This document shows, one piece after another, positions 1 to 44,806 of a stretch of 64,000 nucleotides of DNA (positions are counted from its first letter, which is position 1; each line of letters begins with the position of its first letter). The position numbers and the translations under genes are program-made. This DNA is from a virus (Duplodnaviria; Caudoviricetes): IMG/VR virus record IMGVR_UViG_3300021958_000023, positions 32,001 through 96,000 of that record; one strand, 5' to 3'. The notes under the pieces are model-generated. The model saw nothing but the letters and a program-made list of their open reading frames with translations. It made no database searches and had not been told where the DNA came from.

Positions 1-1121
1 GTGGAAGGAATTGGAACTGTAGGATTAATAGGATGATCCCAGCCAGATCTTGTATACCCTTTTTGAAGCCAGTTTAAAGTAGTTTGAGGACCATTGGTTG
101 CTCCTGAATAACTAGAAGTTGAGGGAGATGATATAGGAATATAGGTTGAAGGTAAACCAGCAGGAGATCCTGGAGCCCCGCCAGTAACTAGTCCTCCACT
201 TCCTCCAACAGCTCCTCCTCCTGCTACGACATAGTTAGTTCCACCAACGTTAACTGTTGTTGTTCCTCCAGAAGTTGTAGTAGCTTGCCCTACAGTAATT
301 GTAACTGGGGTTGAAGGAGTAACAGGTATAGTAGTAGGATAGTAAGCTATGGCTCCTGCACCTCCCCCACCTGCTCCAGACATATCAACTTGATAAGCGT
401 AGTGAGGCCACCACCAATAACCAGAATCATAAGAAAAAGGAGACTCACCACCACCAGTACCATCTCCTCCAGTATTCATATAAGTTCCAGTTGCTCCTCC
501 TGCACCAACAGCAGCATAAACATGCATAGTACTAATACCTTGACCAGCAATAGCCCCAACAGTAGAGTTTATAGGAGAATCATATACATAATCAGCTGTA
601 GGAGCCTTTTTATAGGCTGTATCTGATCCAATAGAGTTGATACCAGTACCAAAACTATTAATACCACGAACTACAAATTCGTGTAGTGTGCCTCCAGGAG
701 TTGAAGGAATTGTGACAGTTGCTGAAGTAGAAGTAATTGGAGAGCCAAGATAATCAGTAGAAATATAAGTATACGCATCAGTAGAAGGAGAAGGTCTCCA
801 ACCGACCTGCCAAGTATTAGCTGATTCACCATCTGTATCTGCTGTCCAAGATACATCAATGCCATCAAATACTGCTGCAGCTGTAGAGGCTGTTACAGAG
901 GGTGCACCGTGAACTGTCGCGCGAAGATCATAAAAGTTTGAAAGAGAAAGCTCCCCAGAAGAAGGGATAGTAGCGCCTGGACCACCACCTAGGCGTTCTC
1001 CAGCTGCTACAACAGAACCGCCAGCATAATAATCACCAAGAGATCCTGGAGCTGTACGAACAGGAGAATAGAGATTTTGAAGATCGGAAATCGAAATTTC
1101 CCCAGAGGTGGGTGTTGCCAT
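1..1121 (-). CDS. Gly/Pro/Thr-rich virion (tail fibre-associated) protein with Fn3-like segment; runs off the left edge
   Basis: Not in the ORF track. ATG at 1121-1119 overlaps the upstream TAA (TAATG). Translates MATPTSGEISISDLQNLYSPVRTAPGSLGDYYAGGSVV...SGELSLSNFY..., then a Fn3-like segment and Gly-rich repeats. Confidence 0.75.
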   Translation of the reverse strand, partial: MATPTSGEISISDLQNLYSPVRTAPGSLGDYYAGGSVVAAGERLGGGPGATIPSSGELSLSNFYDLRATVHGAPSVTASTAAAVFDGIDVSWTADTDGESANTWQVGWRPSPSTDAYTYISTDYLGSPITSTSATVTIPSTPGGTLHEFVVRGINSFGTGINSIGSDTAYKKAPTADYVYDSPINSTVGAIAGQGISTMHVYAAVGAGGATGTYMNTGGDGTGGGESPFSYDSGYWWWPHYAYQVDMSGAGGGGAGAIAYYPTTIPVTPSTPVTITVGQATTTSGGTTTVNVGGTNYVVAGGGAVGGSGGLVTGGAPGSPAGLPSTYIPISSPSTSSYSGATNGPQTTLNWLQKGYTRSGWDHPINPTVPIPS

Positions 1122-3547
1122 TACTTGTCCTCAATTTGAGCTTTTAGTTCTTTTATAGCTTGAATCAGTAGAGGAACTACTCGACCATAGTCTACAGATA
1201 GATAACCATCATCCCTTTCTTTTACTGCTTCTGGTAATACTTCTTTCAATTCTTGTGCTATCACACCAACATCATGACCTTTTAGATGTCCATAGTGAAG
1301 ACCTGCTTCGGAAGCATCCCAATCAAATTCAACACCTTGTATTTGATCTATTTTATCAAGCGCAGAATCAATAGATTTTACGTTGTGTTTCAAACGGTAA
1401 TCTGAAGTATTAAATGCCGAAACATCGCCACCTGCATGAATTGCTCCTTCAACTCCTAAACCACCTTGTGTGATAATTATTGCACCTGTATCTTTAGAAG
1501 TAGATGCGGTGGTGTTTGTTACAGAAAGAGAATCAGATTCAAGAGAAGTGAAGTTACCAGTTCCTTGTGATGCAGCACCAATATTAGTTCCATCAATTGC
1601 ACCGCCATTAATATCTACAGTAGAAATAGTAACTGTTGTACCGTTAAATGTAAATGTAGAAGCGTCTTGTAATTCACCATTAGTACCGGCATAAACAACT
1701 CTTCCAGAAGTTAAGTCTGCAACATTAGCTGAAGCTACTTTTAGTTGAGTTCCTTGTTTAATATGAACATCACCACTTCCATTAGGCGATAAAAGTATAT
1801 CACCATTTGTGTCTGTAGAGCTTATAGTTCTGCCATTAAGTTGTAATTGATCAACACGAATGTCTGTGGCAACAGAGCTAGTACCGATAGTAACACCATC
1901 AATAGCACCCCCATTAATATCAACAGTTTGAGCAGTAAGAGTTGTTCCATTAAAAGTTAAATCTGCGTCAGTTACAAGCTCACCAGAAGTTGTTGTATAG
2001 ACAACTCTACCACTAGTTTGTCCAGTTACAAACACATTTGGAGATCTCAAATCTCTTTGTGGTAAAACATCTCTAGCATAAACATCTTGATAACCAGTAA
2101 CTGAAAGAGATCCTGCAGCTGTACCATCATCAGTAGTGCTAAAAGCAGCCCAACCATCATTTGCTTCATCCCAGATCCATGCCATATTGTCTACAGAAGG
2201 ACGATAAACTAGTAATCCTGCATCATAACTAGCAGGAGCAGACTGATTATTAGCAATAACAATAAAAGGATCTTGTACTAAAAGGTTAGTAGCATCAGCT
2301 GTAAAAGTAGAACCCTGAACTGTGAAATCACCTTGAACAAGCACATCTTGTTCAAAAGTTTTATCAACAGTAAAGTTTTGCGAACCTGAGTGAATAGCTG
2401 TAACATTGTCTTGAACAGTGTTTAATGCAGTCTTAGTAGCAAATGTAGTGTTAGCATACGATCCTGCAGTGTCTACAACTGCTCTTACAACTGTTACATT
2501 ATTTTGAACTGAGTTTACATTAGCAACTTGATCAGTGTGTAGAGTATCAATTCTTGAACCAATTGGAGTTAGATTACTTTGAACACTATCAATATTAGTA
2601 TTCGCTGTTGACGCAAAATAGTCTAAGTTTGCCTTAACAAGATTGATAGATGTATTAGCAGAATCTAAACCAAAGGTTAAAGAGTTTAAAGTTGTATTAG
2701 TAGTAGAGGCATAGTGATGTAAGTTAATCTGAACTTTACCTGCAGCAACATCTTGAGATAATGTTGCCCCTACAATAACAAGATTACCGTTAATTCTTAA
2801 GTTACCATTAATTTGAAATTGAGTATTAGGAACAATACCGCCAGGACCAATAATGACTTGGTCTCCAACCTCATCATTAGCTACATATCTGAAACCATTA
2901 TCACCAACAGTTAACGACTCAGTAATAGTAACAGTATTAGCTCCTTTAATAGCTCCATACATTGTAATATTTCTAAGCTGACTTGCAGGAGATCCTATAT
3001 CCATATAAGATTGAAGAACCGTGATTCCATAATCAGGATCAAAACCATATGTACCAAAATTACGATCTGGAATAATAGAACTATTGGCAGTTAGTATACG
3101 ATTATATTTATAACCATCGCTAAAAAATGCCGCACTATGTGCATGATCTACAGCAAAGTAACCATTATAAGTATCAGCAGGTGGAAAAGCATTATTACTG
3201 GTGAAAGCTGTGCCAAATATCATACGAGCAGTAGTAACAAAAGCGTTACCGTTGTCAGTGATAAATGTCAAACCACCAGTAGAAATTGAGGCATTATTTA
3301 GAATAGGACTATCAATAACAGGAGATCCATTAATTCTAGTTCCAGGGCTCATGTATAGATTTGCATTAATAGTAGCAGGCACACCAATAGGCTCATTAAG
3401 AGTAAGCCCCTCAATGGTTACTGTTGTTATATTTACATTTGATAGACTGGTTTGTACAGTTGCATCACTGATTCCAAGGTTATCTATAGCCCCAGAAATA
3501 TTGTTTGAACCTGTACCACCCAAGGAAACGGGAATTATGGTTGCCAT
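1121..3547 (-). CDS. Tail fibre/spike with C-terminal peptidase S74 intramolecular chaperone
   Basis: C-terminus SDYRLKHNV...GVIAQEL...LSVDYGRVVPLLIQAIKEL is the S74 chaperone signature. Internal duplicated module SGRVVY...TFNGTT..TVDINGGAIDG. Likely start is MATIIPV at 3547 after GAGG (ORF track start 3607). Confidence 0.9.
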   Translation of the reverse strand: MATIIPVSLGGTGSNNISGAIDNLGISDATVQTSLSNVNITTVTIEGLTLNEPIGVPATINANLYMSPGTRINGSPVIDSPILNNASISTGGLTFITDNGNAFVTTARMIFGTAFTSNNAFPPADTYNGYFAVDHAHSAAFFSDGYKYNRILTANSSIIPDRNFGTYGFDPDYGITVLQSYMDIGSPASQLRNITMYGAIKGANTVTITESLTVGDNGFRYVANDEVGDQVIIGPGGIVPNTQFQINGNLRINGNLVIVGATLSQDVAAGKVQINLHHYASTTNTTLNSLTFGLDSANTSINLVKANLDYFASTANTNIDSVQSNLTPIGSRIDTLHTDQVANVNSVQNNVTVVRAVVDTAGSYANTTFATKTALNTVQDNVTAIHSGSQNFTVDKTFEQDVLVQGDFTVQGSTFTADATNLLVQDPFIVIANNQSAPASYDAGLLVYRPSVDNMAWIWDEANDGWAAFSTTDDGTAAGSLSVTGYQDVYARDVLPQRDLRSPNVFVTGQTSGRVVYTTTSGELVTDADLTFNGTTLTAQTVDINGGAIDGVTIGTSSVATDIRVDQLQLNGRTISSTDTNGDILLSPNGSGDVHIKQGTQLKVASANVADLTSGRVVYAGTNGELQDASTFTFNGTTVTISTVDINGGAIDGTNIGAASQGTGNFTSLESDSLSVTNTTASTSKDTGAIIITQGGLGVEGAIHAGGDVSAFNTSDYRLKHNVKSIDSALDKIDQIQGVEFDWDASEAGLHYGHLKGHDVGVIAQELKEVLPEAVKERDDGYLSVDYGRVVPLLIQAIKELKAQIEDK

Positions 3548-3634
3548 CAGTACCTCACAAAAATTCTTGTATAGTGTCATAATACAAGAATTAATCAGGT
3601 TTGGCAATTGGTATTTTTGCTAATTTAGGTATTA

Positions 3635-5542: not shown

Positions 5543-6103
5543 CTATATTTTTGTTTCTGCTCTCATACCTGGAACTCCATACTGCCCTCTGAGTAATATA
5601 TTAAAACTAATCGTTTTTCTTACCTTACTAGTTACATTTTGCTTAACAAAATGAGGTAACCAGCTAGGAAATATAATAAGTTTATTAGGTAATGCTTGAC
5701 TAAAAGGTAGTATATTATTGTAACGAGCATTTAACTGAAAACTAGACGCAGCAGGTCGGGGATCAATGAATATTGTAGGTTCTCCGTCTGTTATGTAATA
5801 TATACCACTAAATATAGAGTTAGGATGTACATGAATAGGGTGATCTTTTCCTAAGTCATTTACATTACACCACATTTCTGTAATATCTATTTCATATTTT
5901 GTTTCAACTTGTATGTCTTTTAGTATCTCTTCTACATAGCTTATTATTGTTTCCTGTAGTTTAGTATGAGAAACTGATGCCCCATCTTCTAAGTTAGCTG
6001 ACGAAATAAAATTAAAGTTTTTATCACTAAGAACGTGTTTCCACTCATAAACTATGGTAGGAAAAAGAATATTTTTTTCCATACTAAACCCTACTTGCAG
6101 CAA
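5543..6103 (-). CDS. 2OG-Fe(II) oxygenase (TIGR02466-like)
   Basis: LFPT, MWCN, HPIHVHPNSIFSGIYY, DPRP, IFPSWLPHFV, RKTISFN. Confidence 0.85.
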   Translation of the reverse strand: MLQVGFSMEKNILFPTIVYEWKHVLSDKNFNFISSANLEDGASVSHTKLQETIISYVEEILKDIQVETKYEIDITEMWCNVNDLGKDHPIHVHPNSIFSGIYYITDGEPTIFIDPRPAASSFQLNARYNNILPFSQALPNKLIIFPSWLPHFVKQNVTSKVRKTISFNILLRGQYGVPGMRAETKI

Positions 6104-6632
6104 TCATATTAGGTATTTCTGAAGTAATTGCCATCTTTTTGTGTTTTTTATATTCTAGTTCCATCTTTTCTTGATCAGGTAAAAAAGGATTTAGAAACAC
6201 TTCACGAAGTTCTTTGTAAAACATTTTAAACTCTTTACCGTGTGGTTGAACATAGTGCATATGATGAAATCTTTTATGGTTGTATTGTGCTGCATGAGCC
6301 ATTTCATGAGTGATATGGTGTAATAGTTTATGCTCAAGATTATTAGTAAAGAAACCTCCAATTACAGGATCTTTATCAAATGAAGCATATTCATATACCC
6401 GACGAGGAGCGTCATAGTTTTCATCAGGAATTGCAACACTCATAGCGATTGAAATAACAGGTCCTCCGTTTCTCCATCCACCACGAGAACAACGACGCCT
6501 CTTTGACCAATCAAGTTTACACTCTACAAGTGCAAACTTTTCAGCACTAGAGAATCGAGAATACTTGTGAAACCACTTTTCAATATCATTCACATATTGA
6601 TCTGCTAGTTCATTCCAATGTCTACGATTCAT
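6084..6632 (-). CDS. SprT-like zinc metalloprotease
   Basis: HEMAH (HExxH) followed by PHGKEFK. Confidence 0.7.
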   Translation of the reverse strand: MNRRHWNELADQYVNDIEKWFHKYSRFSSAEKFALVECKLDWSKRRRCSRGGWRNGGPVISIAMSVAIPDENYDAPRRVYEYASFDKDPVIGGFFTNNLEHKLLHHITHEMAHAAQYNHKRFHHMHYVQPHGKEFKMFYKELREVFLNPFLPDQEKMELEYKKHKKMAITSEIPNMIAASRV

Positions 6633-6847
6633 TTACCTATATCCTTTACATTATTAGCTGTTACAATAGTATAAGCTCCTTTATTAAATGCAGGAGCAGT
6701 TGGAAATATCTTTTTATCTTCCCCACAGTCAAGACACGTTTTATAACCTAGTTTTCTTCTCTGATAAGAAAACTCCTCACCACAATCTATACAGTATACT
6801 GCAAAATTTTTCTTGCCAATATCTGGTTTTAGTGCTATTATAGTCAT
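6629..6847 (-). CDS. Small DksA/TraR-like zinc-finger protein
   Basis: CIDCGE..RRKLGYKTCLDC; PAFNKGAY. Confidence 0.65.
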   Translation of the reverse strand: MTIIALKPDIGKKNFAVYCIDCGEEFSYQRRKLGYKTCLDCGEDKKIFPTAPAFNKGAYTIVTANNVKDIGK

Positions 6848-7432
6848 ATGTATTTACCTAACCACTTACAAAATTTTTCTACACAGTTGTACGAAAGATA
6901 TAAAAATATAAACCCAGTTGAGATAATAACAAATTATCACTTCATAAGAGATGGAAGAGTTTTCTTCATTGAAAATGGTGAAGAGAATATGGTATTTCCT
7001 GACTCTTATAAAAATACTATATCAAAAATTAAAGCTCATAGCAAGAATACATTTAAAGTAGAAGGTTTTGAAAAGTTTGATGAATATCTTGCAACTGTGT
7101 GTGATAGTAAAACTAAAGATGAATATATAGACTGTCATTTGTATTGGGGTAAAGTGGGAAAATCTAGTTTTATAACCCATGTTGATCCTTACGATGTTGT
7201 AATAGTAATGATTTCTGGCACTAAAAAAATGGTGTTTCCTGATAATAATGAAGAACAAGTACTGAATCCAGGAGATACTGTATATATTCCAGGAAATAAA
7301 GCACACTATGCTAATAACGTAACAGAAAATATTTCTCTAAGTTTTGGTATTAGAAAGTACTATAAATACATAGATTTAAAACTCCAATCATTGCAGATGG
7401 CAGCTGATGCATCATATAACAGTATATCTTAA
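6848..7432 (+). CDS. JmjC/cupin 2OG-dependent hydroxylase
   Basis: SFITHVDPYDVVIVMISGTKK...LNPGDTVYIP...HYA...SLSFG has the JmjC HxD...H pattern. Confidence 0.8.
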   Translation: MYLPNHLQNFSTQLYERYKNINPVEIITNYHFIRDGRVFFIENGEENMVFPDSYKNTISKIKAHSKNTFKVEGFEKFDEYLATVCDSKTKDEYIDCHLYWGKVGKSSFITHVDPYDVVIVMISGTKKMVFPDNNEEQVLNPGDTVYIPGNKAHYANNVTENISLSFGIRKYYKYIDLKLQSLQMAADASYNSIS

Positions 7433-8459
7433 AACTACAGAAACTTGTCAGTTAAATTGTAAACATTGTTTTACCAACGGGATAAACGGTAGAAAAATAT
7501 ATTTTAACCCTGTTAAGACAGTAGAGTGGATAAATAAATTAAAAACAGCTTATCAAAACAACTCTATACATTTTGAGTTTCACGGTGGAGAACCGTTTTT
7601 AGCCCCAGTTTCGGATATGAAATATGTTGTTGAAAATACAAAACAACTGTGGAACAACGCAAGTTATGGAATGACAAGTAATCTAACTCTTAATCTGGAC
7701 GAAGAAAAAACACAATTTATATTGAAAGATTTAAATGGTATAATAGGCACTTCGTGGGATAAAAGTATCAGATTTACTAACATAAAACAAAAAGAGTTAT
7801 GGGAAAATAATGTAAAATATTTAAAGTCTTTAGGTGTTTATATAACACTATTTGTAAGTGTTACTAAGGAACTTTGCAATACTGATCCTGAAACTATTAT
7901 AGAATATTTTAATAGTTTAGGAGTAGATGAAGTAGATTTTGAAAGACTAACCAATCACGGAAATGCAAAACTACATCCTGAAATTTTTCCGACTAATAAA
8001 GAACAAGATACTTGGTTTTTAAACTTATACAAGTGTAAAACAAAAAGAGAGTGGAAAGATAGTTTTATAGACTCAATAGTAAAAACAAGACTAGCAGGTT
8101 CTCAAACAGCTACTTTTTGCAGAGATTGTGAACAAAAATTATTTACTGTAAATGCAGACGGAACAATTAGTGGATGTCCTAATGCAGCTCCAGAAGAGGT
8201 TTATGGTAATATTGAACAAGACATTTGGGATTTACTTTGGAATCCAAAAAGAAAATATATAATAGCTTGTGAAGCAGCTAGAGATGAAAGATGTTATAGC
8301 TGTGAAGTATTTGATTTATGTGGGAGTGGGTGTCATCAGCTAGACTGGGATGAAACTCATTGCCCCTCTCCTAAAAGTTTATTTAAGCTATTAAAACAAA
8401 CACCTATAAAAGAAATAAAAGAAGGAGCGTATTATGCCAATTCAAAACACTGGGGATGA
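7407..8459 (+). CDS. Radical SAM/SPASM protein #1
   Basis: CQLNCKHC (CxxxCxxC), FHGGEP; C-terminal CRDC..GTISGCP..CYSCEVFDLCGSGC..CP. Confidence 0.92.
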   Translation: MHHITVYLKTTETCQLNCKHCFTNGINGRKIYFNPVKTVEWINKLKTAYQNNSIHFEFHGGEPFLAPVSDMKYVVENTKQLWNNASYGMTSNLTLNLDEEKTQFILKDLNGIIGTSWDKSIRFTNIKQKELWENNVKYLKSLGVYITLFVSVTKELCNTDPETIIEYFNSLGVDEVDFERLTNHGNAKLHPEIFPTNKEQDTWFLNLYKCKTKREWKDSFIDSIVKTRLAGSQTATFCRDCEQKLFTVNADGTISGCPNAAPEEVYGNIEQDIWDLLWNPKRKYIIACEAARDERCYSCEVFDLCGSGCHQLDWDETHCPSPKSLFKLLKQTPIKEIKEGAYYANSKHWG

Positions 8460-9036
8460 AATTAGTAAAGCAGCAGTTTTACAAAGATTTAATGAAGTCA
8501 TGCGTGACAATATTAATCCTGTTATTGATGTAGGTTCTGGAACACCTTTTACCACTGGAACATACAGGGAGTTGACAAATACAGGGGATGGAGGTATTCC
8601 TATTAATCATGTAGGAGCGCCTACAGTATCTCCTGCTACAACCGGGGGTCTAACAGACACTATTATAGACGCTGCAGGATTAGCCAATTATTTAAGAACT
8701 CTTACTAGAAATTATAGCCAAGTAAGAAAACTAAATTGGAGACTGAGATTTAATAAAACAGGATATCCTAGTGGTAATGGTAATCTGGTTTTAGAACAAA
8801 CAACTACTGACTACATTCATCTAAATGCTGAAACATATAAACAAACAGTTACAGATAATGCTACAACCTATAATATTGAAGAAGGCGATCTAATTGATGC
8901 ATCTGACTTTGAAAGCTATATAGCAGATTTATACTCACAGTGGAGTACTTTAAAAGAAAATACAGTAACAATCTATGTTGATACTTGTCATGCAAGTTGT
9001 CATTCAAACTGTCACGGTTCTAGGGGAAGAAGATAA
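8434..9036 (+). CDS. Putative substrate/precursor: virion-like protein with C-terminal (CHxS/N)3-RGRR tail
   Basis: Thr/Gly/Asn-rich 200-aa protein. Its only three Cys lie in the terminal CHASCHSNCHGSRGRR. Embedded among radical SAM genes. Confidence 0.7.
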   Translation: MPIQNTGDEISKAAVLQRFNEVMRDNINPVIDVGSGTPFTTGTYRELTNTGDGGIPINHVGAPTVSPATTGGLTDTIIDAAGLANYLRTLTRNYSQVRKLNWRLRFNKTGYPSGNGNLVLEQTTTDYIHLNAETYKQTVTDNATTYNIEEGDLIDASDFESYIADLYSQWSTLKENTVTIYVDTCHASCHSNCHGSRGRR

Positions 9037-9734
9037 TGAAAGTAATTAAGACTAAGGCACCAATAGATGTTGAATATTTACAAGAATATTTTTCATCTGA
9101 AGAAGAAATAATGTTTGAGTTAATGTATTATGATAGTGATATAAAAGGAAGAACTTTTTTTAACTATGTAGCAAATCTAGACATTAAGTTCAAACTGAAT
9201 TTTTATGAAACCACACAAGAAGAAAGGTATGAGTTATTAGATCTTTACCTTAATTCTAACTCAATAATTTCCTGTAAAGAACTTGAATTGGCATTAACGT
9301 ATTTAGTACTTAAATATAATAACTGTAATGTAGATGACTTATACTCTTTTTCAATTCTTAGTCCGGAGTATGCTGAAAAATTTATAACAGAAAAAATGAA
9401 TAAACTGATGACTGTAACAGAATTTTTAGAATCTTTACCTATTACGACTCTCTCTTTTGTATCCTCTTTAAAAGAGTTTGTAAATCAAGAATTGAAAAAT
9501 TATGATGTAGTAGAAGATACAGATATAATAGGTAAAAATATAATAAATCTGATTAATAATCCTTTTATATTTCAACTGTATGAAACTAGTGGAAGTAGAA
9601 AAAGATATTTTAAGTATTACTCTGAAGAGTATATTTATGATGAAAAAAATCTATACGGCTGGATGACCGACAACGACGTACCCCTCTTAGTTTTTGTATC
9701 AGGAATAGCAGCCGGTGTTCAACCTAGTAAATAA
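9036..9734 (+). CDS. Hypothetical protein of the radical SAM cluster
   Basis: Long ORF, TAATG-coupled to the precursor gene; no recognisable motif. Confidence 0.75.
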   Translation: MKVIKTKAPIDVEYLQEYFSSEEEIMFELMYYDSDIKGRTFFNYVANLDIKFKLNFYETTQEERYELLDLYLNSNSIISCKELELALTYLVLKYNNCNVDDLYSFSILSPEYAEKFITEKMNKLMTVTEFLESLPITTLSFVSSLKEFVNQELKNYDVVEDTDIIGKNIINLINNPFIFQLYETSGSRKRYFKYYSEEYIYDEKNLYGWMTDNDVPLLVFVSGIAAGVQPSK

Positions 9735-10851
9735 TGTATATTTAGAATATAATTTTTGTTATACCTCTGAAATACCTAAACTATTAGTAGGGTATGAAGA
9801 GCCTTTGCCAAACACTTGGAATTATTTCAAAGACGCTGATAGTTTATTTGAAAGTAATACTTTAAAAAATATAGATAAAAGTACAGAAATAGTAGTTTTA
9901 GCAAACGAAGATGCTTATAACAAAATATTAATTACATATTTAAAATCAATCCTACCAAACTGCATAGAGCAATCTGCGTATCATTTTTATAAACTTCTTT
10001 TACAAAAACATATCTATTTACACGGAAAATCATGTTTAGCACATGATGACGGATCTACTAATCTAAAATCTCCTTGGAACTCATTAACATTATTATCGTT
10101 AAAGGAATTTAGTAGTATATATAAAACTTGTAGTAAACACTTACTAGATGATTTCTATACAAAAGGAGCTTGTTTAGAACTACACTTAGCTAGTTATTTA
10201 GCAAATACTAAATATAACCATAAAGATATATTATATAAAAAACTATATAATATAGTTGCTGATACAGTATTAAACGAATTAACTTATTGGAAAATGAATG
10301 TAATGTGTCAGTTATTTGAGTTAGGGGATTTAGTTGATAGCATAGAGTATGGCTCTCATTTGTATGAAAATGCAGTTTATGAAGATTTAAAACTACCAAA
10401 AGAATACGATTGGTTAATGGATGGAAATATAAAAGCCTACCCTGACCTAAAGTATGTTAAAGAAAACTATGATCTAAAAACTCTATTTAGACTTTATAGA
10501 AAATCTGTAATGAAGTATGGTCACAATGGATTTTATAATAGTGAAGTTTTAATGGAAAAGTTCATTGAAGGTAACTTAGGATTAAGAGACATAATAAATA
10601 TCGATATTAACACAATTTATGCAGGTGGAAATATTGGAGAATATCAATATCAAGATAGAACTACTCACTACTTATTAAGATATTTCTATCTCTTAGCAAC
10701 AGAAAAAAGATACGATAAACTATCTGAGTATTCTTTAGAAACTACTGACAAAGTATTTAAACCTTTTATAAATGAATATAAAAGAAATAAAAAAATTCCG
10801 AAAGAATGGAATTTAACAGACCACCACAGTTTTAGAGAAGGCTATGTATAA
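9715..10851 (+). CDS. Hypothetical protein of the radical SAM cluster
   Basis: 378-aa ORF overlapping both neighbours; no recognisable motif. Confidence 0.75.
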   Translation: MFNLVNNVYLEYNFCYTSEIPKLLVGYEEPLPNTWNYFKDADSLFESNTLKNIDKSTEIVVLANEDAYNKILITYLKSILPNCIEQSAYHFYKLLLQKHIYLHGKSCLAHDDGSTNLKSPWNSLTLLSLKEFSSIYKTCSKHLLDDFYTKGACLELHLASYLANTKYNHKDILYKKLYNIVADTVLNELTYWKMNVMCQLFELGDLVDSIEYGSHLYENAVYEDLKLPKEYDWLMDGNIKAYPDLKYVKENYDLKTLFRLYRKSVMKYGHNGFYNSEVLMEKFIEGNLGLRDIINIDINTIYAGGNIGEYQYQDRTTHYLLRYFYLLATEKRYDKLSEYSLETTDKVFKPFINEYKRNKKIPKEWNLTDHHSFREGYV

Positions 10852-11833
10852 CACAGTCATAGATAAAAAAGCGTCCACTCTGGGAGAGGTTATTGTAACA
10901 CTGTTTGAACACTGTAATCTTGCGTGTAGTTTTTGTTCTCAAAATCATAATTCATTTGAGGGTGTGGAATCCATCCCAGAAAAATACTTTGCGATAAAAA
11001 GCGTCTATGAAAACTTACGCTCACAAAATAAAGAACAATTTTCCTTTCATTTTATGGGCGGAGAGATTTTGAGTGATTCAGTTTCAAATCAAATTTTGAA
11101 TAAAATTGAAGATTTAATTCTTAGATGTCAACAATCATTTGAAAACAGTGAATTTCTAATAACTTCTAATATGATATGGAGTGATAGAGATAGGGTAAGA
11201 CAAATGCTAGATAGGCTAGAAATTAAACTAGCAGTCAGCTATGATCCTGCGGGTCGCTTTAATACTACTCAACTAGAACAGTTTATGTCTAATGTTGAGT
11301 ATTTTAAAGATTATATCACCACAGTAAATATAATTCTAACAGCTCCTAATATTTATAAATTTTTAGGTAATGATATAACAGGTTTTGAGTATCTATATGA
11401 TAACTTTAATATATATTTTGATTACTATACTCCTGAAAAAAACGCTAGTATAAACTGTCCTACAGATGTAGAGTTATTAGAAATATTCAAATATTTGTCT
11501 AGTAATTATCCTAAAGTAGCACCTATAAACAAGTATTTATCTGGAGATACTAGGAAAAATTTAACCTGTCAAAGAACAAAGGTAATAGCTGCTAATGGAG
11601 AAATAGGTCACTGTAATTTATTAGTTGGAGGCAACTATAGAGCATTAGCACATGATAGTAGAGATAAGATGGAAGCTAAATGGATAGAAGGATTTAATTG
11701 CTTAATGTGTGATCATTTTACTAGATGTGGGTTGGGGTGTTTTCAAGAAAACCATATTTTACCTGAAAAAAGTACTATGGAGCATTGTTGGATTAAAGAC
11801 TATTGGGAATGGTTAGATGGAACTTATAATTAA
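10844..11833 (+). CDS. Radical SAM/SPASM-like protein #2
   Basis: CNLACSFC, FMGGE; C-terminal CLMCDHFTRCGLGC..HC. Confidence 0.9.
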   Translation: MYNTVIDKKASTLGEVIVTLFEHCNLACSFCSQNHNSFEGVESIPEKYFAIKSVYENLRSQNKEQFSFHFMGGEILSDSVSNQILNKIEDLILRCQQSFENSEFLITSNMIWSDRDRVRQMLDRLEIKLAVSYDPAGRFNTTQLEQFMSNVEYFKDYITTVNIILTAPNIYKFLGNDITGFEYLYDNFNIYFDYYTPEKNASINCPTDVELLEIFKYLSSNYPKVAPINKYLSGDTRKNLTCQRTKVIAANGEIGHCNLLVGGNYRALAHDSRDKMEAKWIEGFNCLMCDHFTRCGLGCFQENHILPEKSTMEHCWIKDYWEWLDGTYN

Positions 11834-12890
11834 ACCAACAGAACGTTGTAACTTTAAATGTACCTTTTGCTCTAGTACAAAAATTGCTGATTCTAAATCT
11901 GTAGAATTAGAGCATGAAAAAATATTTGCTTTTTTAAGAAGATTTCCTGATACTAATACTATTATTGTAAACGGTGGTGACCCTCTAATGATGACACCTG
12001 ATTACTATTGGAAAATAATAGATTACTTAAATGAACACGGCTTGAATACTACTATATCTTTAACGACTAATCTATGGCCGTTCTATAAAAATCCGACTAA
12101 ATGGATTGATCTTTTGAGTCATCCTAGAGTAGGGGTTTGTACCTCTTTTCAATATGGAGGAGGTAGATTAAAAGGAGATTTTTCAGAGTTTACTGAAGAA
12201 GACTTTTGGAATGTTTCAGATAAAATGTTAGAACTCGTAGGTTACCGTCCTGATTTTATCTCAGTAATAACAAAAGAAAATGAAGATCAAGCTATTGACA
12301 ATGTAAGATTAGCTAAAAAAATGGGAGTAGTGTGTAAACTAAACTATGCTGTTGCAAGCGGTCCAGAAATTAGATTTCTTAATGGAATTAAGATGGGATT
12401 AGAAAACTATACCTATCTACTTGCAGATATATATGAAATTTATCTTAAAATTTATAAGCTAGGACTTGCTGATTGGGAATATAACACTACTCAACTACTA
12501 AAAAGATTTTCTTCTAATACTACTTGTCCACAAAACAGACGTTGTGATGAAAATATTAGAAACCTAAATCCAGGAGGTGACTACTATTCTTGCGGAGCAT
12601 TTGGAGATGACAAAGAGTATGAAATAGATTTTGATAAAGAGATGAATCAAGATAAAGTAGAAACTCCTTTACAAAAGTCTATAGAACTACTATCTTTAAA
12701 ACAATCTTGTTTTACTTGTCCTATGTTTAAGATTTGTAATGGATGTAAAAAAACTACTAGTGATTTGAAAAGATTAAATTTAGTAGAAACACACTGTAAA
12801 AAAATGAAGAAACTAGCGCCTGACATAATAGAAATATGTAATTTAAAAACAAAAGTAACGGAGTATATAGATGAGTCAATATACACATAG
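11817..12890 (+). CDS. Radical SAM/SPASM protein #3
   Basis: IIKPTERCNFKCTFC, NGGDP; CPQNRRC..YYSCG..CFTCPMFKICNGC..HC. Confidence 0.92.
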   Translation: MELIIKPTERCNFKCTFCSSTKIADSKSVELEHEKIFAFLRRFPDTNTIIVNGGDPLMMTPDYYWKIIDYLNEHGLNTTISLTTNLWPFYKNPTKWIDLLSHPRVGVCTSFQYGGGRLKGDFSEFTEEDFWNVSDKMLELVGYRPDFISVITKENEDQAIDNVRLAKKMGVVCKLNYAVASGPEIRFLNGIKMGLENYTYLLADIYEIYLKIYKLGLADWEYNTTQLLKRFSSNTTCPQNRRCDENIRNLNPGGDYYSCGAFGDDKEYEIDFDKEMNQDKVETPLQKSIELLSLKQSCFTCPMFKICNGCKKTTSDLKRLNLVETHCKKMKKLAPDIIEICNLKTKVTEYIDESIYT

Positions 12891-13668
12891 AAAACTATGG
12901 CCTACCCCTATTTTATTAGGAAGTATTGATAAAGAATTAGCCAAAGATTTATTTAATTATATACTGAATAAGTATCATAATCCTGATGAAAAAACAGAAG
13001 TATTTAATCTGTTTTCTATCGGTGAGCCTCTTTTAGATAATCTATATAAAAACCATATTGTTCCTGCTACAAAAGAATATATTAAAAATAATTTATTTCA
13101 GTCTAACCATTATGAAATAAATTCTTATGCGTGGGCTCACGTATTGCCACAAGGACAAAATGTAGGTATTCATAATCATCCTAATAATCATATAAGCGGT
13201 ACTATATGGTTAAACGATCATGATAGTCATCTTTTAATGGTCGATCCAAAAGGTAATTCTAATATGATGGATTTTGGATATCTAGATTTAGAAATGTTAA
13301 CTAAAATGGGTATGACTGTTGGGAATGATGAAATTAGACATAACCATACTTCTAGATATAACGAGTTTGGAAGACAGATGAATAATAGCACACTAGACTT
13401 CACAGGACTTTTTGGTGATTATGTTGATACATTTGATAAACCAACTAGATCAGTAAATCCAACTAACATCACTATTAAACCAGAGCTTGGTAAGTTTGTA
13501 TTATTTCCATCTTGGGTATGGCACGAAGTAGAACCAAACCAATCTAAAATGCCTAGAATTAGTATTTCTTGGGATACTAGAATTACTCCAAAGATAAAAA
13601 AAGAGCATAATATTCATCATGAACAAGACATTAGAATATTAGGAGATGTTCTTGATATACAGAACTAA
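12871..13668 (+). CDS. 2OG-Fe(II) oxygenase (TIGR02466-like)
   Basis: LWPTP, HNHPNNHISG, LFPSWVWHEV, RISISWD. Confidence 0.85.
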   Translation: MSQYTHRKLWPTPILLGSIDKELAKDLFNYILNKYHNPDEKTEVFNLFSIGEPLLDNLYKNHIVPATKEYIKNNLFQSNHYEINSYAWAHVLPQGQNVGIHNHPNNHISGTIWLNDHDSHLLMVDPKGNSNMMDFGYLDLEMLTKMGMTVGNDEIRHNHTSRYNEFGRQMNNSTLDFTGLFGDYVDTFDKPTRSVNPTNITIKPELGKFVLFPSWVWHEVEPNQSKMPRISISWDTRITPKIKKEHNIHHEQDIRILGDVLDIQN

Positions 13669-14071
13669 GAAAGCTGATATTAATGATTTACAAATATTAG
13701 TAGCTTTATCATATAATATGATAAAAGATGAGCGGTATGAACGAGATGATTTAGTTTATATTATAAAAAATGATATAATTGAAATACTATATTTCAATAA
13801 TATAGCTATTGGATACTATACCGTAATTAATCATGAGAAGGGTAAGTACTTAGAAACTATATTAATTGATAAAAAATATCAAGGAACAGAAGCAGTATAT
13901 CAATTATGTAATAAAGCAGTTAACCCTATTAATGGAAATCCTTTATGGGGTTTAAGTAGATATAAACGAGTTGATATATTATTGAAAAAATATGGTTTTG
14001 AACCAAAAGAATATGAAACAATTAAAGGAAGAAAGTACAGATGGTGGATAAACCGTTTTCAGTCTCAATAA
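13646..14071 (+). CDS. GNAT-family acetyltransferase-like protein
   Basis: KADINDL, IGYY, YLETILIDKKYQG (motif A-like), LLKKYGF. Confidence 0.6.
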   Translation: MFLIYRTKKADINDLQILVALSYNMIKDERYERDDLVYIIKNDIIEILYFNNIAIGYYTVINHEKGKYLETILIDKKYQGTEAVYQLCNKAVNPINGNPLWGLSRYKRVDILLKKYGFEPKEYETIKGRKYRWWINRFQSQ

Positions 14072-14958
14072 ACCCTAGTTACTTTTGTAATTTTAGATGT
14101 GATTTTTGTTATCTAACTCCTGAACAACTAGGAGACCAGAAAAAAATTGATCTTAAAAAATTAGATAAATTACTTTCTGAAGTGCCAAAAATAGATCATA
14201 TAGATTTATACGGCGGAGAAATAGGAGCATTAAAAAGGAGTTATTATGAAGACCTTATCAAAACAATACGCAATTGGTATTCTGACACTATCAACATTAA
14301 TACTAATTTTTCTATGCTTGACGACAGATTCTTCGAGGATGGAATCTCTCTTTCCGTCTCATATGATTTTTCAGCAAGAGAAAAATCTAATCTAGTATAT
14401 AATAATATGTTAATGAGCCCTGTGCCTCTCTCGGTTCTTATCTTAGCTTCAGCTGAAGTAGTAAAAATGGATGTAGACTATATGATTAAACAATTAAATA
14501 TGTGTAAATCAGTAAAGTCAGTTGAAATAAAGCCATATTCTATAAATCAAGCAAATGCTCATTTAGTAACTCATAGAGAGTTTGAGTTATTTGTGTCTCA
14601 GTGGATTGATAGTCCTATAGAAAAACGGTTTGAGTTTCAAAACTTGAGAAGAATTGAACGAAGTGTCAAGAAGGAGTATAGTGCTTGGTCTGATGATCAT
14701 ATCTATATTACTCCTAATGGAAAGTTTGCTGTATTAGAGTTTGATCAAAACGATAGAGAATATTTTATGGAATTACCGAGTTACAACGCATTTGAACAAT
14801 GGGCGTGGAGAGAGAAAAGAACACTATCTACAATATGTCAAAACTGTAGTTGGGTAGGACATTGCTTAACAGAACACTATAGACAAGTAAAAGATTTAAA
14901 ACATAGTTGTAATGGTTATATAAATCTTTTAACAAAGTACCAACATGATTTTATATAA
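14041..14958 (+). CDS. Radical SAM protein #4 with Cys-rich C-terminus
   Basis: CNFRCDFC, LYGGE; C-terminal CQNCSWVGHCLTEH..SCNG. Confidence 0.9.
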   Translation: MVDKPFSVSINPSYFCNFRCDFCYLTPEQLGDQKKIDLKKLDKLLSEVPKIDHIDLYGGEIGALKRSYYEDLIKTIRNWYSDTININTNFSMLDDRFFEDGISLSVSYDFSAREKSNLVYNNMLMSPVPLSVLILASAEVVKMDVDYMIKQLNMCKSVKSVEIKPYSINQANAHLVTHREFELFVSQWIDSPIEKRFEFQNLRRIERSVKKEYSAWSDDHIYITPNGKFAVLEFDQNDREYFMELPSYNAFEQWAWREKRTLSTICQNCSWVGHCLTEHYRQVKDLKHSCNGYINLLTKYQHDFI

Positions 14959-15454
14959 AGACGTTTTAGAAAATGGTTTTGCTTTCAGTGAAATTAATCT
15001 AAATCCTATTGCTAAAGATTTAGAATCTTTAGAGTTTTATGAAAACGAAGATAGAAAACCAGGAGTTGAAGTAAGCTGGTCTACTTTTGGTATGCCTAAA
15101 AAAGTTAATAACTACTTAATACATAGTTTAAAAAACGTATGTGATGATTACATAGGTTCCTTAATAGATAAAATAGACACATTTGAAGCGTATAAAACAG
15201 AAGTAAAAGAATATACACAGCTTCACAGCGATTCTTCTTTTGGAGGGCTGATACAAATTATGGTCTACTATATTAAGGGAGATTTAAAGGGTAGAAACTT
15301 TTTATATGGAAAAGTAAGCAGAATAGATAGTATAGTTCCTTATACAGGACTAGTTATAGTATCTGATCAACTAAATAAAGAGTGGTTACATGGCACTAAC
15401 CCACTAATAAATCCGTGTTTTAATTTATGTATAACAGCGATAACTCCAAGATGA
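14945..15454 (+). CDS. Putative 2OG-Fe(II) oxygenase
   Basis: LHSD...GRNFLYG...P..GLVIV...WLHGT is consistent with an HxD...H facial triad. Confidence 0.55.
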   Translation: MILYKDVLENGFAFSEINLNPIAKDLESLEFYENEDRKPGVEVSWSTFGMPKKVNNYLIHSLKNVCDDYIGSLIDKIDTFEAYKTEVKEYTQLHSDSSFGGLIQIMVYYIKGDLKGRNFLYGKVSRIDSIVPYTGLVIVSDQLNKEWLHGTNPLINPCFNLCITAITPR

Positions 15455-16134
15455 ATAAAAAAGAATTTTATAAGAAAGAACATTTTTCTAAAAAGAACTG
15501 GTTACATGACAATGGTAGAGTAAACGCTACAGTATCAGGAAATAACTGGGTAGGAGTATCTATATCTCCTTATATGAAAGATTTTAAGTCTCAAGTAGAT
15601 CCAGGAATTTGGCCGTTGGTTGAGATACTAACTAAAAAAGGATATTTAACTTGTTCATCTTGTGAAGGGCATGATTGGATGGAAGAATCTTTTGTAGTAG
15701 TGTGTTTTGGGTCTAGAGATTCAAGAGATCAATTTGCTAAACAAGTAGTAAAAGCACACATACCTCAATACCGAGTATTCTATCAAGAATCACAGACTAA
15801 TATAAATCTTTATGATCCATTCAATAATTATCATGAATTAATGGATGATCCTACAATGGATGAAACTCAGAATTGGTTTAAAGTAAAAGATAAACTATAT
15901 TTTACAAAAGTTGAAGACGATATACCAGAAGAAATTATAGAAAAAGAAGCAGAAAACTGGAATCACTGTTTTGGTAGAAAATATAAACGATGGTACTATT
16001 GTCGACTTCTAATTGGGGGTGCAGTACTAAACGGTAAGACTCCCACAACACTATGTGTACACTGGACTCGTTATTTTTGGATAAAAAAATTAGCTAGTTT
16101 TATTGAAAGAAAGGTATCTAATGGCTTTGACTGA
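15427..16134 (+). CDS. Hypothetical protein with Tyw3-like SSCxGH motif
   Basis: VDPGIWPLVEILTKKGYLTCSSCEGH resembles the Tyw3 N-terminal D..I..L...YTTSSCSGR pattern. Likely start is MNKKEF. Confidence 0.55.
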   Translation: MYNSDNSKMNKKEFYKKEHFSKKNWLHDNGRVNATVSGNNWVGVSISPYMKDFKSQVDPGIWPLVEILTKKGYLTCSSCEGHDWMEESFVVVCFGSRDSRDQFAKQVVKAHIPQYRVFYQESQTNINLYDPFNNYHELMDDPTMDETQNWFKVKDKLYFTKVEDDIPEEIIEKEAENWNHCFGRKYKRWYYCRLLIGGAVLNGKTPTTLCVHWTRYFWIKKLASFIERKVSNGFD

Positions 16135-16771
16135 GAAATTTAGAGAAATACAATATGATTCTGATAATCTTATAGAGTATTCTTACCATGCAAACGATAC
16201 ATCTAAAGAAGTATTAGAACTAAAAAATAAACTTTACACAATTTTTAAAGAAGAAAGTGCTGCTGACTTAGCTTTTAAACACGATATGATCAGCTATCAT
16301 TCTAAAAATGGAACTACTTATGAAGAAGATGCTATTGTAGTTGTTTATTCTGAAAAATGTCCTTTTTATTTAAGAGAAGAGTTTAATCTAAAAGATTTTA
16401 ACTCTTTAGACTTTTATGCAATAAAATATTTCTTAAATAGTAAAAAAAGAGTATTAAAAACGTATGATGCAGATATGTATAATTATGAAATACCCCAACT
16501 CCCTCCTAAATCAGCTATCGGTAATCAATTTGGTGTTGGAAGAACACACGGAATTGAAAAAGAGTATAGAGATGTTTACTTTTTTAACTCTAATGATATG
16601 ATGGTAGGGTATTTTTGGGGAGATTGGATTCCTAAAATAGAAGAACCATATAAAAATCCCGCAACTAAATGTTACGGGATTACTTACGAAGAAGGAATCA
16701 AAGATGTTTTAAAGTTAAAACGTTACCTGTTTCCTTTTCATTATGAAATGTCTGATCTAACTTTATTATGA
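16103..16771 (+). CDS. Hypothetical protein, last gene of the island
   Basis: 222-aa ORF converging on the minus-strand gene that ends at 16766. Confidence 0.7.
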   Translation: MKERYLMALTEKFREIQYDSDNLIEYSYHANDTSKEVLELKNKLYTIFKEESAADLAFKHDMISYHSKNGTTYEEDAIVVVYSEKCPFYLREEFNLKDFNSLDFYAIKYFLNSKKRVLKTYDADMYNYEIPQLPPKSAIGNQFGVGRTHGIEKEYRDVYFFNSNDMMVGYFWGDWIPKIEEPYKNPATKCYGITYEEGIKDVLKLKRYLFPFHYEMSDLTLL

Positions 16772-17377
16772 TTTTCTCTCAATAGTAAAAGAAACAGGGG
16801 GTGGATTAGGAGCAATATTAAAACTAATAATAGCTTTTGGTATATCTTTATCTATATGTCTATTACTAGTATGTCCTATAAAAGATGGAAATATTATCAC
16901 ATCTCCTTCGTCCACTGTTGGAGTTACAGAATCTATATTACCATCATAAGGAGTTCCAAAAGGGCTATAAAAACTAGTACCCCCACTAGGAGGAACATCA
17001 ATATACAGAATAGCACTATAGCCTAGAGCTCCATGATTATGATAAGGATGAGATCCTCCATAGGCATAGTGTTGAAACCACATCTCACTAATTATAAGTT
17101 TTTCTAACCCTACCTGTTCTTTCCATTCAAATAGTTCTTTTTCTATAGTTTGAAACACAAATTTTGTGTATTGCTTTTTACTAAGGTTTTCCCAAAAGTC
17201 TGTAGCTATACCTGTATTTTCATCTACACCTATTGCAGGTAGTAACGTAAGCAATTCTTCTTTTTTATTTTTCCAATCAGAAACTCTAAATCTCCAATAA
17301 GGAACTCTAAATAAGTCTCTTTGTTGTATCATATATCGCCTATCATTGGAAAAATTTCTGCAATTACTTTTGCACAA
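16766..17377 (-). CDS. 2OG-Fe(II) oxygenase
   Basis: MWFQHY..HPYHNHG...YSAILY, EGDVIIFPSFIGH, IISFN. Likely start is MIQQRDLF. Confidence 0.8.
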   Translation of the reverse strand: MCKSNCRNFSNDRRYMIQQRDLFRVPYWRFRVSDWKNKKEELLTLLPAIGVDENTGIATDFWENLSKKQYTKFVFQTIEKELFEWKEQVGLEKLIISEMWFQHYAYGGSHPYHNHGALGYSAILYIDVPPSGGTSFYSPFGTPYDGNIDSVTPTVDEGDVIIFPSFIGHTSNRHIDKDIPKAIISFNIAPNPPPVSFTIERKS

Positions 17378-18027
17378 GCGTGTGCAATTTCCATGTGTTC
17401 TAATTGTGTTCCATTAGCTCCACGTAGATCGATATAGTGAATCCATGAACGTAAAGTACCGTTCATATATAAACGTGTTTTAGTCAATCCTTCTGGTAAC
17501 ACAACACGAGCCTGTTCTTTAGCAATACCGTTTTCTATAGCCCAATTGTATGCGTTACTAGCTGCTAGAATAACTTGATCTTGTTTAGACAACCATTGTT
17601 GTTGTAAAGCAGCTTGTTCTTTGCTTTCTAACTCACTGTCTTCTAAAGAGATACTATTTTGTCTATTCTTTTTATCTTGTAATCTCGCATCTCTACGAGT
17701 AAAAATTTCTCCTAAACTTTTAGGATTAGCGTAACGCTGACTAAACTCTTGAAATGAAAAAGAACGATGACGCACAATTTGATGTGCGATATCACGAGTA
17801 GTTTCAATTTCTAAACACACATTTACCATCTCAAAAGGAGACCAATGTTTATGTTGCATTAAATAGTATAGTAGCTTTTCAGAAGTTTCTTCATTGATTT
17901 GATTTCCTGGATTAGAAACTCTTGCACAATAGGCAACTAGTCCTTTTATATCTCTTACACTACTGTTAGTATCAAATAGTTCTTTAGATACTGTACTATA
18001 AGAAACTAATTTAACTTTCGTATCCAT
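17329..18027 (-). CDS. thyX: Flavin-dependent thymidylate synthase
   Basis: HWSPFE, RHRSFSFQEFSQRY signature, EQARVVLP, LRSWIHYI. Confidence 0.97.
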   Translation of the reverse strand: MDTKVKLVSYSTVSKELFDTNSSVRDIKGLVAYCARVSNPGNQINEETSEKLLYYLMQHKHWSPFEMVNVCLEIETTRDIAHQIVRHRSFSFQEFSQRYANPKSLGEIFTRRDARLQDKKNRQNSISLEDSELESKEQAALQQQWLSKQDQVILAASNAYNWAIENGIAKEQARVVLPEGLTKTRLYMNGTLRSWIHYIDLRGANGTQLEHMEIAHACAKVIAEIFPMIGDI

Positions 18028-39423: not shown

Positions 39424-39430
39424 GGGAAAA

Positions 39431-43755: not shown

Positions 43756-44000
43756 GATTAATCAATTATCAACAACTAGAAGAGCTGTTTCAAAAACACG
43801 ATTTAAACATATCTAAACCAGCAACTTTTTCTAGTAAAATATTTCAAAAACTGTTCGTAATAGGATCAACAGGATTTATAGTAATCTACGGAGTACTACT
43901 ATTTTTATTACTATTACCTCTAGTTTTGGTAGAAGCAATTATAACAGGTTTTATAAGGGGAATTAAACATGCAAAAGAAATCCGTAATAAGTCTGATTAG
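43707..44000 (+). CDS. Small membrane protein
   Basis: Long hydrophobic stretch. Likely start is MRLINY. Confidence 0.6.
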   Translation: MERQRINENNRSRCGMRLINYQQLEELFQKHDLNISKPATFSSKIFQKLFVIGSTGFIVIYGVLLFLLLLPLVLVEAIITGFIRGIKHAKEIRNKSD

Positions 44001-44805: not shown

Positions 44806-44806
44806 A

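Follow-up and report, generated by a model that had tools for sequence, protein, structure and literature searches.

We examined a window of 64,000 nucleotides, bases 32001-96000 of the complete 173.5-kb virus record IMGVR_UViG_3300021958_000023 (IMG/VR; a marine phage of low GC content), and focus on an island at positions 6848-16771 of that window, where four radical S-adenosylmethionine enzymes (radical SAM, abbreviated rSAM) are encoded around a protein with a Cys- and His-containing tail. Open reading frame (ORF) calls and their translations place 13 co-directional plus-strand ORFs in the island, numbered g01 to g13, with minus-strand genes on both sides. Successive ORFs overlap at 12/12 junctions by 1-32 nt, the sign of the GC skew is reversed over the island and the GC content goes down to 29-31 %. 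A preliminary description of this DNA had reported twelve overlapping, translationally coupled plus-strand genes within a minus-strand region; the overlaps and the strand switch are as described, while the number of genes is thirteen.

Seven of these ORFs constitute a core with the order cupin, rSAM1, CHxS protein, unk232, rSAM2, rSAM3 and rSAM4. The cupin g01 (6848..7432, 194 amino acids (aa)) is a JmjC_2-type Fe(II)/2-oxoglutarate (2OG) oxygenase matching PF08007 and phrog_8014. It is followed by g02 (rSAM1, a radical SAM/SPASM protein of 350 aa, 7407..8459; CxxxCxxC, TIGR04085, phrog_1802), by the CHxS-tailed protein g03 (8434..9036, 200 aa), which is the presumed substrate and, by homology to gp170 of phage Atu_ph07, a virion protein, and by g04 (unk232, phrog_20767, 9036..9734). 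The remaining core genes encode rSAM enzymes, namely g06 (rSAM2, 10844..11833, PF04055 and phrog_1802, with a SPASM-type Cx2Cx5Cx3C), g07 (rSAM3, SPASM-like, 11817..12890, PF04055), the most conserved enzyme of the cassette, and g10 (rSAM4, 14041..14958, PF04055 and phrog_1802, with the short Cys-rich C-terminus Cx2Cx5C...C).

The 200-aa protein with a Cys/His tail is present as previously described: g03 ends CHASCHSNCHGSRGRR, its terminus reads ...VDT-CHAS-CHSN-CHGS-RGRR, and the tail, encoded at 8986..9033 (plus strand), is the invariant core motif among its homologues. A degenerate DNA pattern for the tail matched at least 119 IMG/VR contigs; since the pattern demands the Cys, His and Arg positions, their invariance in that set is partly by construction. 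The tail-ending ORFs span 116-364 aa, and BLAST links 125 of them into one family. Searching 5.8 billion proteins with a profile returned 108 homologues, none of them named or with a Pfam domain. When Atu_ph07 gp170 and RSL2 ORF068 are added, 108/110 homologues have CH..CH..CH..R.RR at the C-terminus, in a set that is also somewhat tail-biased because the search was word-seeded.

Across 261 non-redundant members the tail consensus is [VIL]-C-H-[AST]-S-C-H-[STG]-[SN]-C-H-[GST]-S-R-G-R-R, and in 69 % of them the tail cysteines are the sole cysteines of the protein. The mean column identity of the family is 17 % and the tail is the only invariant part. Such a combination of variable body and invariant tail is expected if the body adapts to hosts while the tail has to suit several enzymes. 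Four or six CHxS units are present in a few members. Extra repeats occur at loci L151 (a Dysosmobacter segnis contig), L152, L160 and L035, the last three with four units, and one protein has two full tandem (CHxS)3 blocks before RGRR.

The AF2 model of g03, of moderate confidence (pLDDT 77, pTM 0.76), shows an alpha/beta body with the tail leaving its last strand. Fold searches with this model (PDB Foldseek, VIA wide, ESM Atlas) returned chance-level rows only (Z at most 4.2, TM at most 0.36), and its BFVD matches are uncharacterised phage homologues only. Neither a signal peptide nor a peptidoglycan-binding domain is present in g03.

We found the core in at least 119 IMG/VR phage contigs and in the cultured jumbo phages Atu_ph07, the RSL2 group, Phosso and pPa_SNUABM_DT01. 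Among the 121 tail-bearing loci listed (119 from viral contigs, the other two from Atu_ph07 and RSL2; their flanks vary in length and many are truncated), rSAM1 is present in 88, unk232 in 82 (always directly 3' of g03), rSAM2 in 63, the cupin in 52 (always at the head of the cassette), rSAM3 in 52 and rSAM4 in 33. Loci that seemingly lack enzymes have two tandem tail proteins of ~127 aa and then 1-6 divergent CxxxCxxC ORFs. All loci with at least 1.8 kb of upstream and at least 7 kb of downstream sequence (11/11) carry 3-6 rSAMs, in the usual core order.

The converse also holds. An rSAM1 homologue of at least 40 % identity has the tail protein as its next gene in 15/15 cultured-phage records, which are those of Atu_ph07, Phosso, pPa_SNUABM_DT01 and the RSL2/RSF1/FLC/RsoM3USA/SURPRISE13 group. 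The preliminary description had proposed to check whether the rSAMs occur without the CHxS protein; these records give no such case, and its view of a self-contained modification cassette around the CHxS protein is supported by conservation and by co-occurrence in both directions.

The number of rSAM genes per cassette goes from three or four up to seven or more, which suggests lineage-specific extra steps. Seven rSAMs are found in a Bacteriovoracaceae genome (L172, G004:C3:147000-167000) and at least seven are annotated in pPa_SNUABM_DT01 (L174). The RSL2 cassette (L002) has a dihydrofolate reductase (DHFR) gene at 15039-15575 between rSAM genes, a feature not seen in other lineages. The cassette costs its carriers up to 10-14 kb of genome.

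The four CxxxCxxC enzymes reported earlier are all rSAMs. The motif lies within the first 31 residues (g02 C14/18/21, g06 C24/28/31, g07 C11/15/18, g10 C16/20/23), PF04055 matches 4/4 with E-values from 3e-10 to 6e-5, the gathering score being passed by g07 only (41.0 vs 29.5), and Fer4_12 and phrog_1802 are matched by g02, g06, g07 and g10, with g02 matching phrog_1802 at 1e-55. The Cys-rich SPASM-like C-termini ascribed to all four are clear in g02, the only one to pass the SPASM model TIGR04085 (36.4 bits, cut-off 27), and are seen as motifs in g07 (25.0, slightly under the cut-off) and g06 (15.1, weak); g10 has a partial motif and no TIGR04085 match. By eye the C-terminal motifs are Cx2Cx5Cx3C in g02 and g06, Cx2Cx5Cx2C in g07 and Cx2Cx5C only in g10.

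Single-sequence searches of rSAM1 and rSAM3 against PDB sequences gave no match and profiles were needed. The rSAM1 profile aligns over its full length with anSME (4K36-39, E 1e-13), as does the rSAM3 profile (E 2e-7); anSME is a SPASM enzyme whose targets are Cys or Ser of whole proteins, which fits the maturation of a whole protein. CteB, ChlB, MoaA, YydG and SkfB align to the two profiles mostly over the core only, while the uncharacterised radical SAM structure 8VPO aligns to the rSAM1 profile over its full length (E 6e-8). As in anSME, an N-terminal recognition domain is missing from rSAM1 and rSAM3. The jumbo-phage homologues of rSAM1 are 40-47 % identical. In NCBIfam, peptide and protein maturases (PapB, anSME, DarE, DynA, YhhB, HxsB/C) head the match lists of rSAM1-3 or make up much of them, and the list of rSAM4 is headed by viperin, YfkAB, NrdG and MoaA; each of these matches reaches only a small part of its cut-off score. 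Each of the four rSAM orthogroups is conserved in its own right between this phage and the bacterial phylum Bdellovibrionota (E 1e-50 to 1e-138), so that they would have distinct enzyme roles.

The JmjC hydroxylase of the preliminary description is g01, which passes PF08007 (JmjC_2) with 43.7 bits at a cut-off of 22 and has the iron triad as H-V-D plus a later His. PF08007 includes the ribosomal-protein His/Arg hydroxylases NO66, MINA53 and YcfD; because this family holds His/Arg protein hydroxylases, the His and Arg residues of the tail are, by analogy, plausible targets of g01. Of the two further 2OG-Fe(II) oxygenases proposed, g08 (2OG-FeII_Oxy_5, 12871..13668, 265 aa) matches PF13759 with 69 bits; it is a frequent accessory, present in 10/121 phage loci listed and also adjoining the cassette in a Bdellovibrionota locus (L170). 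The other, g11 (14945..15454, 169 aa), is a small protein that has a 2OG-oxygenase fold by Atlas structure only (TM 0.72-0.77 to 2OG-FeII_Oxy_3/5 clusters). The acetyltransferase g09 (13646..14071, 141 aa), specific to this island, is likewise GNAT-like by Atlas features only (0.97, 178 shared features, top matches all GNAT), and Pfam gives no match for g09 or g11.

Four ORFs are without family, the same number as noted before: g04, g05 (9715..10851, 378 aa), g12 (15427..16134, 235 aa) and g13 (16103..16771, 222 aa). The AF2 model of g04 has a pLDDT of 93, and fold searches with it gave no convincing match, the best reaching Z 5.5 over 56 residues only. The predicted complex of g04 with g03 scored 0.02, a value that speaks neither for nor against binding. 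The idea of g04 as a degenerate rSAM, or as a relative of g05, found no support in profile comparison (P ~0.5). The accessory g13 also occurs in Bdellovibrionota cassettes, with a match at L170:13472-14074 (E 1e-14).

Apart from g08, the accessory genes are rarely or patchily shared, with g09 and g11 each in 1, g13 in 2, g05 in 3 and g12 in 5 of the 121 loci listed. The pathway is therefore really the seven-gene core, and the earlier treatment of the whole island as one pathway holds for that core; it fails for g05, the GNAT and g11-g13. Pfam, NCBIfam (g01-g10) and PHROG scans detected no protease or transporter family among the island proteins, g04, g05, g12 and g13 being without family, in agreement with what had been said of the island.

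A location for the tail protein comes from Atu_ph07, where the gene 3' of rSAM1 encodes a protein of 296 aa and 31,894 Da that ends CHSSCHASCHNSRSRR and corresponds to gp170. In purified virions gp170 (31.89 kDa) was identified by electrospray ionization tandem mass spectrometry (ESI-MS/MS) with 8 unique peptides and 35 % coverage (PMC6102473 Table S5). It was seen across gel bands 1-9, with its maximum in band 1, far above monomer size (PMC6102473), which suggests a covalent or very stable assembly. The proteins gp165, gp168, gp169, gp171 and gp172 are absent from the virion list (PMC6102473 Table S5); the rSAMs of the Atu_ph07 cassette are not on it, nor is gp169, the homologue of g04.

The cassette usually adjoins tail-fibre or fibre-chaperone genes. 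In this window a tail-fibre gene is encoded at 1121-3607. A tail-fibre gene is directly upstream in the phage loci with tandem tail proteins, in Atu_ph07 and Phosso a gene for a giant virion structural protein precedes the cassette by a few genes, that of RSL2 comes after baseplate and virion proteins, and the locus shown for pPa_SNUABM_DT01 opens with a Mu gp45-like central-spike gene, ~6 kb upstream of the cassette. A Peptidase_S74 protein (fibre intramolecular chaperone) stands beside the cassette in two Bdellovibrionota families and a 2355-aa Big_2/RCC1 protein does so in a third Bdellovibrionota genome. The Peptidase_S74 protein is paired with a conserved protein of ~200 aa and unassigned family (L170:2160-2762 (-) and L172:6573-7202 (-)).

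The tail pattern was also run on one genome per prokaryotic species and gave 47 stretches. About 38 of the 47 are the ends of genuine family members (ORFs of 100 aa or more), ~27 of these in Bdellovibrionota, where the copies are chromosomal (contigs up to 2.8 Mb); most of the remaining prokaryotic family members look like phage contigs inside metagenome-assembled genomes. Three Bdellovibrionota regions contain the cassette, two of them in full (5-7 rSAMs) and the third with at least 3 rSAMs in the 20 kb covered. Compared with this phage, their enzymes give E-values of 1e-92 for rSAM1, 1e-122 to 1e-138 for rSAM3 and 6e-95 for rSAM4 (L170), and the cassette is present in 10/301 sampled genomes of the phylum.

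In a quick maximum-likelihood tree of rSAM3, rooted by a distant paralogue, 8/9 Bdellovibrionota copies group together, the ninth stands apart and none falls within the phage clade (SH-aLRT 91-93 on the separating branches). Because they are placed outside the phage clade, the Bdellovibrionota copies do not look, from these sequences, like recent prophage contamination. The pathway is thus carried by phages, as the preliminary description had it, but not by phages only, since the same cassette is chromosomal in Bdellovibrionota.

Around the island, a sigma-70-like promoter match (TTGCCA-17-TG-TATTAT, 6813..6841, plus strand) is the top-scoring site and lies directly 5' of g01; it is weak, as the region holds no more such sites in total than expected from shuffling. 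In the region, promoter- and terminator-like sites do not exceed chance, the T4 late-promoter motif TATAAATA is not enriched there (7 found vs 12 expected), and a DNA-level search of the island against cultured phages gave no match. On the minus strand next to the island are genes for an SprT-like metalloprotease-family protein (6084-6632) and a DksA/TraR-type zinc-finger protein (6629-6847), the start of the latter abutting that of g01 (6847/6848), so that the divergent genes have no intergenic space. Genes for 2OG-FeII_Oxy_5 oxygenases flank the island at 5543-6103 (-) and 16766-17377 (-) and, together with g08 and g11, bring the small 2OG oxygenases within 12 kb to four. ThyX is encoded nearby at 17329-18027 (-).

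Further along the window, a long co-directional run of enzyme-sized ORFs at 34050-45961 (+), including a phrog_3139 aminotransferase (39398-40615), may be a second biosynthetic block, perhaps for sugar tailoring. The DNA polymerase at 56720-58963 (+) is of family A and shares ~40 % identity with its counterparts in T5-like phages of Vibrio and Providencia, and the phage also encodes an NAD-dependent ligase and a DnaB-type helicase. Judged by this polymerase, which resembles that of T5-like phages, the 173-kb marine phage is not T4-like, unlike several other cassette carriers.

Taken together, the gene content, the conservation, the co-occurrence and the virion location of one homologue point to a real and widespread protein-maturation system, apparently undescribed so far, and probably to an undescribed chemical finishing step for a host-contact protein. 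We consider it reasonably probable that a virion protein has its tail matured in place by the rSAMs, with the tail retained and the protein associated with the fibre or baseplate. That this is a virion protein is suggested by gp170 in Atu_ph07 particles and by the recurrent fibre-gene neighbourhood, and both fit the in-place modification of a virion protein favoured in the preliminary description.

According to this proposal, g03 would be made as a folded protein of ~200 aa with an exposed 16-residue C-terminus, (Cys-His-x-Ser)3-Arg-Gly-Arg-Arg. We infer that this C-terminus would be the common substrate of four non-redundant rSAMs of anSME-like architecture with no leader-recognition domain, and the JmjC-type hydroxylase and the 2OG oxygenases would probably act on it too. 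The likely chemistry would be H-atom abstraction at Cys, Ser or His side chains, and the products could be cross-links (thioether and/or carbon links of the His-Ser type) or formylglycine, and His or Arg could be hydroxylated in addition; a change of the HxsA type (+8 Da) is a further candidate. The modified tail would stay on g03 and the protein would be built into the particle, most likely on or near the tail fibre or baseplate; for predatory bacteria a surface fibre would be the counterpart. The result could be a rigid, protease-resistant and cationic end piece contacting the prey envelope.

Several points weigh against this proposal. The link between the tail and its role as substrate derives from gene neighbourhood and conservation, and the Cys3His3 set could simply bind metal. 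Detection in virions is limited to one phage, Atu_ph07, and since the loading buffer, as described, lists no reductant (PMC6102473), the gp170 of high molecular weight may reflect disulfides of the tail cysteines or a stable oligomer. The rSAM chemistry is not assignable because the family scores are far below any equivalog cut-off. Fold searches gave no recognisable fibre or adhesin relative for the g03 body. In this window the tail-fibre gene (1121-3607) is on the opposite strand, ~3 kb upstream of the island.

It is conceivable that the system reaches further. Tentatively, and with clearly less confidence than in-place maturation as such, we suggest that tailed phages and Bdellovibrio-like predators share an ancient multi-rSAM pathway that would make a new cross-linked Cys/His structure on the (CHxS)3-RGRR end of a fibre-associated protein, possibly linking subunits, and that this structure would be needed to recognise or breach the prey envelope. 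Since phages and Bdellovibrionota both carry the cassette, they may share a molecular means of attacking Gram-negative envelopes. If such a pathway exists, it would provide the first virion protein with an enzymatic radical modification, and its post-translational chemistry would be new. The wide occurrence of the cassette, its near-invariant target motif and its genome cost suggest a strongly selected function, and culturable carriers exist (Atu_ph07, the RSL2/RSF1/FLC phages, pPa_SNUABM_DT01 and Phosso), jumbo phages infecting plant pathogens and Pseudomonas, in which the chemistry and the infection role are directly testable.

Another explanation for the Cys3His3 tail is that it forms a metal or Fe-S site or a carrier arm, with the rSAMs acting on a glycan, lipid or small molecule and g03 serving as scaffold or metallochaperone. 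Alternating Cys-His with a period of four is a plausible ligand set, and in phages His motifs often bind Fe or Zn at the tips of fibres and spikes. The invariant Ser and Arg, and the strict adjacency and overlap of g03 and rSAM1, exceed what a metal site needs, however, and the nearest families of the rSAMs are peptide and protein maturases. The aminotransferase-containing enzyme block at 34-45 kb of the window would suit a glycan or small-molecule product, but family scans found no glycosyltransferase or sugar-activation genes in the core cassette. We regard this explanation as unlikely.

The preliminary description had classed the island as a candidate RiPP-like system (RiPPs are peptides made on the ribosome and modified after translation) that may act on a virion protein or release a modified peptide. 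In such a classical RiPP or peptide-derived cofactor pathway the g03 body would act as a long leader, and all or part of the modified 16-mer would be cut off and released as a toxin, a signal or a redox or metal cofactor, comparable to pyrroloquinoline quinone (PQQ) or mycofactocin. Precursors of the MftA and PqqA type have a C-terminal core, and several rSAMs with oxygenases do resemble a cofactor pathway. Here, though, the supposed leader is a conserved folded domain of 116-364 aa that is itself found in virions at 35 % coverage, and nothing indicates release. The four family-less ORFs of the island could hide a protease; against this, family scans detected no protease, exporter or immunity gene and the core cassette has no candidate peptidase in any lineage examined. 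The island is thus probably not a RiPP system in the usual sense, and a released product appears improbable.

We rate no higher the chance that g03 is a nucleic-acid gatekeeper like that of the HXS system, in which a cationic HxS/RGRR tail would bind periplasmic DNA and exclude superinfecting phages, escort or protect the phage's own DNA, or counter a host HXS. In that system two rSAMs mature the HxS-repeat protein HxsA, which binds DNA and keeps phage DNA from entering (PMC13128918); the g03 tail has three HxS triplets and an RGRR end, and a virion protein could reach the periplasm on infection. On the other side, the missing signal peptide and peptidoglycan-binding domain of g03, Hxs model scores far below cut-off and the failure to find HxsD in g01-g10 set the two apart, and Bdellovibrionota, which inject no DNA, retain the whole cassette next to fibre genes. 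ThyX at 17329-18027 and the DHFR between the RSL2 rSAM genes might recall hypermodification of nucleotides or DNA, or a cofactor pathway, with no relation to g03; this is very improbable, as neither gene is a conserved cassette part, no nucleotide-modifying rSAM family is among the top full-length matches and the CHxS protein is universally present.

Small peptides are known to undergo maturation by rSAMs, as are a few proteins (sulfatases, QhpC and, recently, HxsA and CrpA). We know of no virus-particle protein finished by rSAM chemistry, and none appears in the literature searched. That search also returned no description of the cassette or the tail motif, the phage genome papers listing 'radical SAM', 'Fe-S oxidoreductase' and 'cupin'. 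For whole proteins, rSAM maturation is documented for HxsA (PMC13128918), which carries a still undefined +8 Da change (PMC13128918), and for CrpA (PMC13692751).

Among the known systems, the triceptide maturases HaaB and HtkB link a His ring carbon to the beta-carbon two residues on (PMC11499958), and H-x-S occurs three times in the g03 tail. The similarity to triceptide enzymes is weak and generic (YhhB, XyeB, FxsB and GrrM, all below cut-off), and there is no triceptide precursor or protease context. The maturases of ranthipeptides, sactipeptides and protein thioethers (PapB/freyrasin, QhpD/QhpC, CrpC/CrpA, TIGR04115) are SPASM rSAMs that cross-link regularly spaced Cys; the tail has a Cys at every fourth residue, PapB is the top NCBIfam match of rSAM1, and QhpC and CrpA are protein substrates. 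The differences are that the tail offers no Asp, Glu or Asn acceptors, that no leader or RiPP recognition element (RRE) is found, that the putative precursor is a folded protein of 116-364 aa rather than a short leader-bearing peptide, and that the product would not be released. Scores are also far below the cut-offs, at 60.6 bits vs 340 for PapB (NF047865) and 25.8 vs 350 for the CXXX-repeat model TIGR04115.

Closer in architecture is anSME (PDB 4K36-4K39), the best solved full-length relative of rSAM1 and rSAM3, a compact rSAM+SPASM enzyme without leader-recognition domain that acts on Cys or Ser of a protein. The last repeat of the tail, C-H-[GST]-S-R, recalls the anSME substrate C-x-[PA]-x-R. 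In contrast to that substrate, position 3 of the tail motif is not Pro or Ala, and four different enzymes would serve one tail; TIGR03942 (anSME) scores 56.1 bits vs 349, and no sulfatase is encoded in the island.

The HXS antiphage system (HxsA/B/C/D; TIGR03976-03979) is the closest described system, although membership fails on every model tested: HxsB (TIGR03978) scores 35.2 bits vs 370 and HxsC (TIGR03977) 33.3 vs 267.9, about a tenth of the cut-off, and HxsA (TIGR03979) and HxsD (TIGR03976) have no match at E <=0.1 in g01-g10. In HXS, too, a whole protein with basic-rich His-x-Ser repeats is matured by more than one adjacently encoded rSAM (PMC13128918), and the system includes a small partner protein and cannot do without the modified repeat (PMC13128918). 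The three H-x-S triplets of the g03 tail are separated by Cys, giving a Cys-His-x-Ser repeat of period 4 that is exactly C-terminal and capped by RGRR. In place of an HxsD and a peptidoglycan-binding or signal region, the cassette has 4-7 rSAMs, a cupin and 2OG oxygenases. Finally, whereas HXS belongs to a host defence island, the system described here is encoded by phages and predators, with its protein in the virion in the case of Atu_ph07 gp170.

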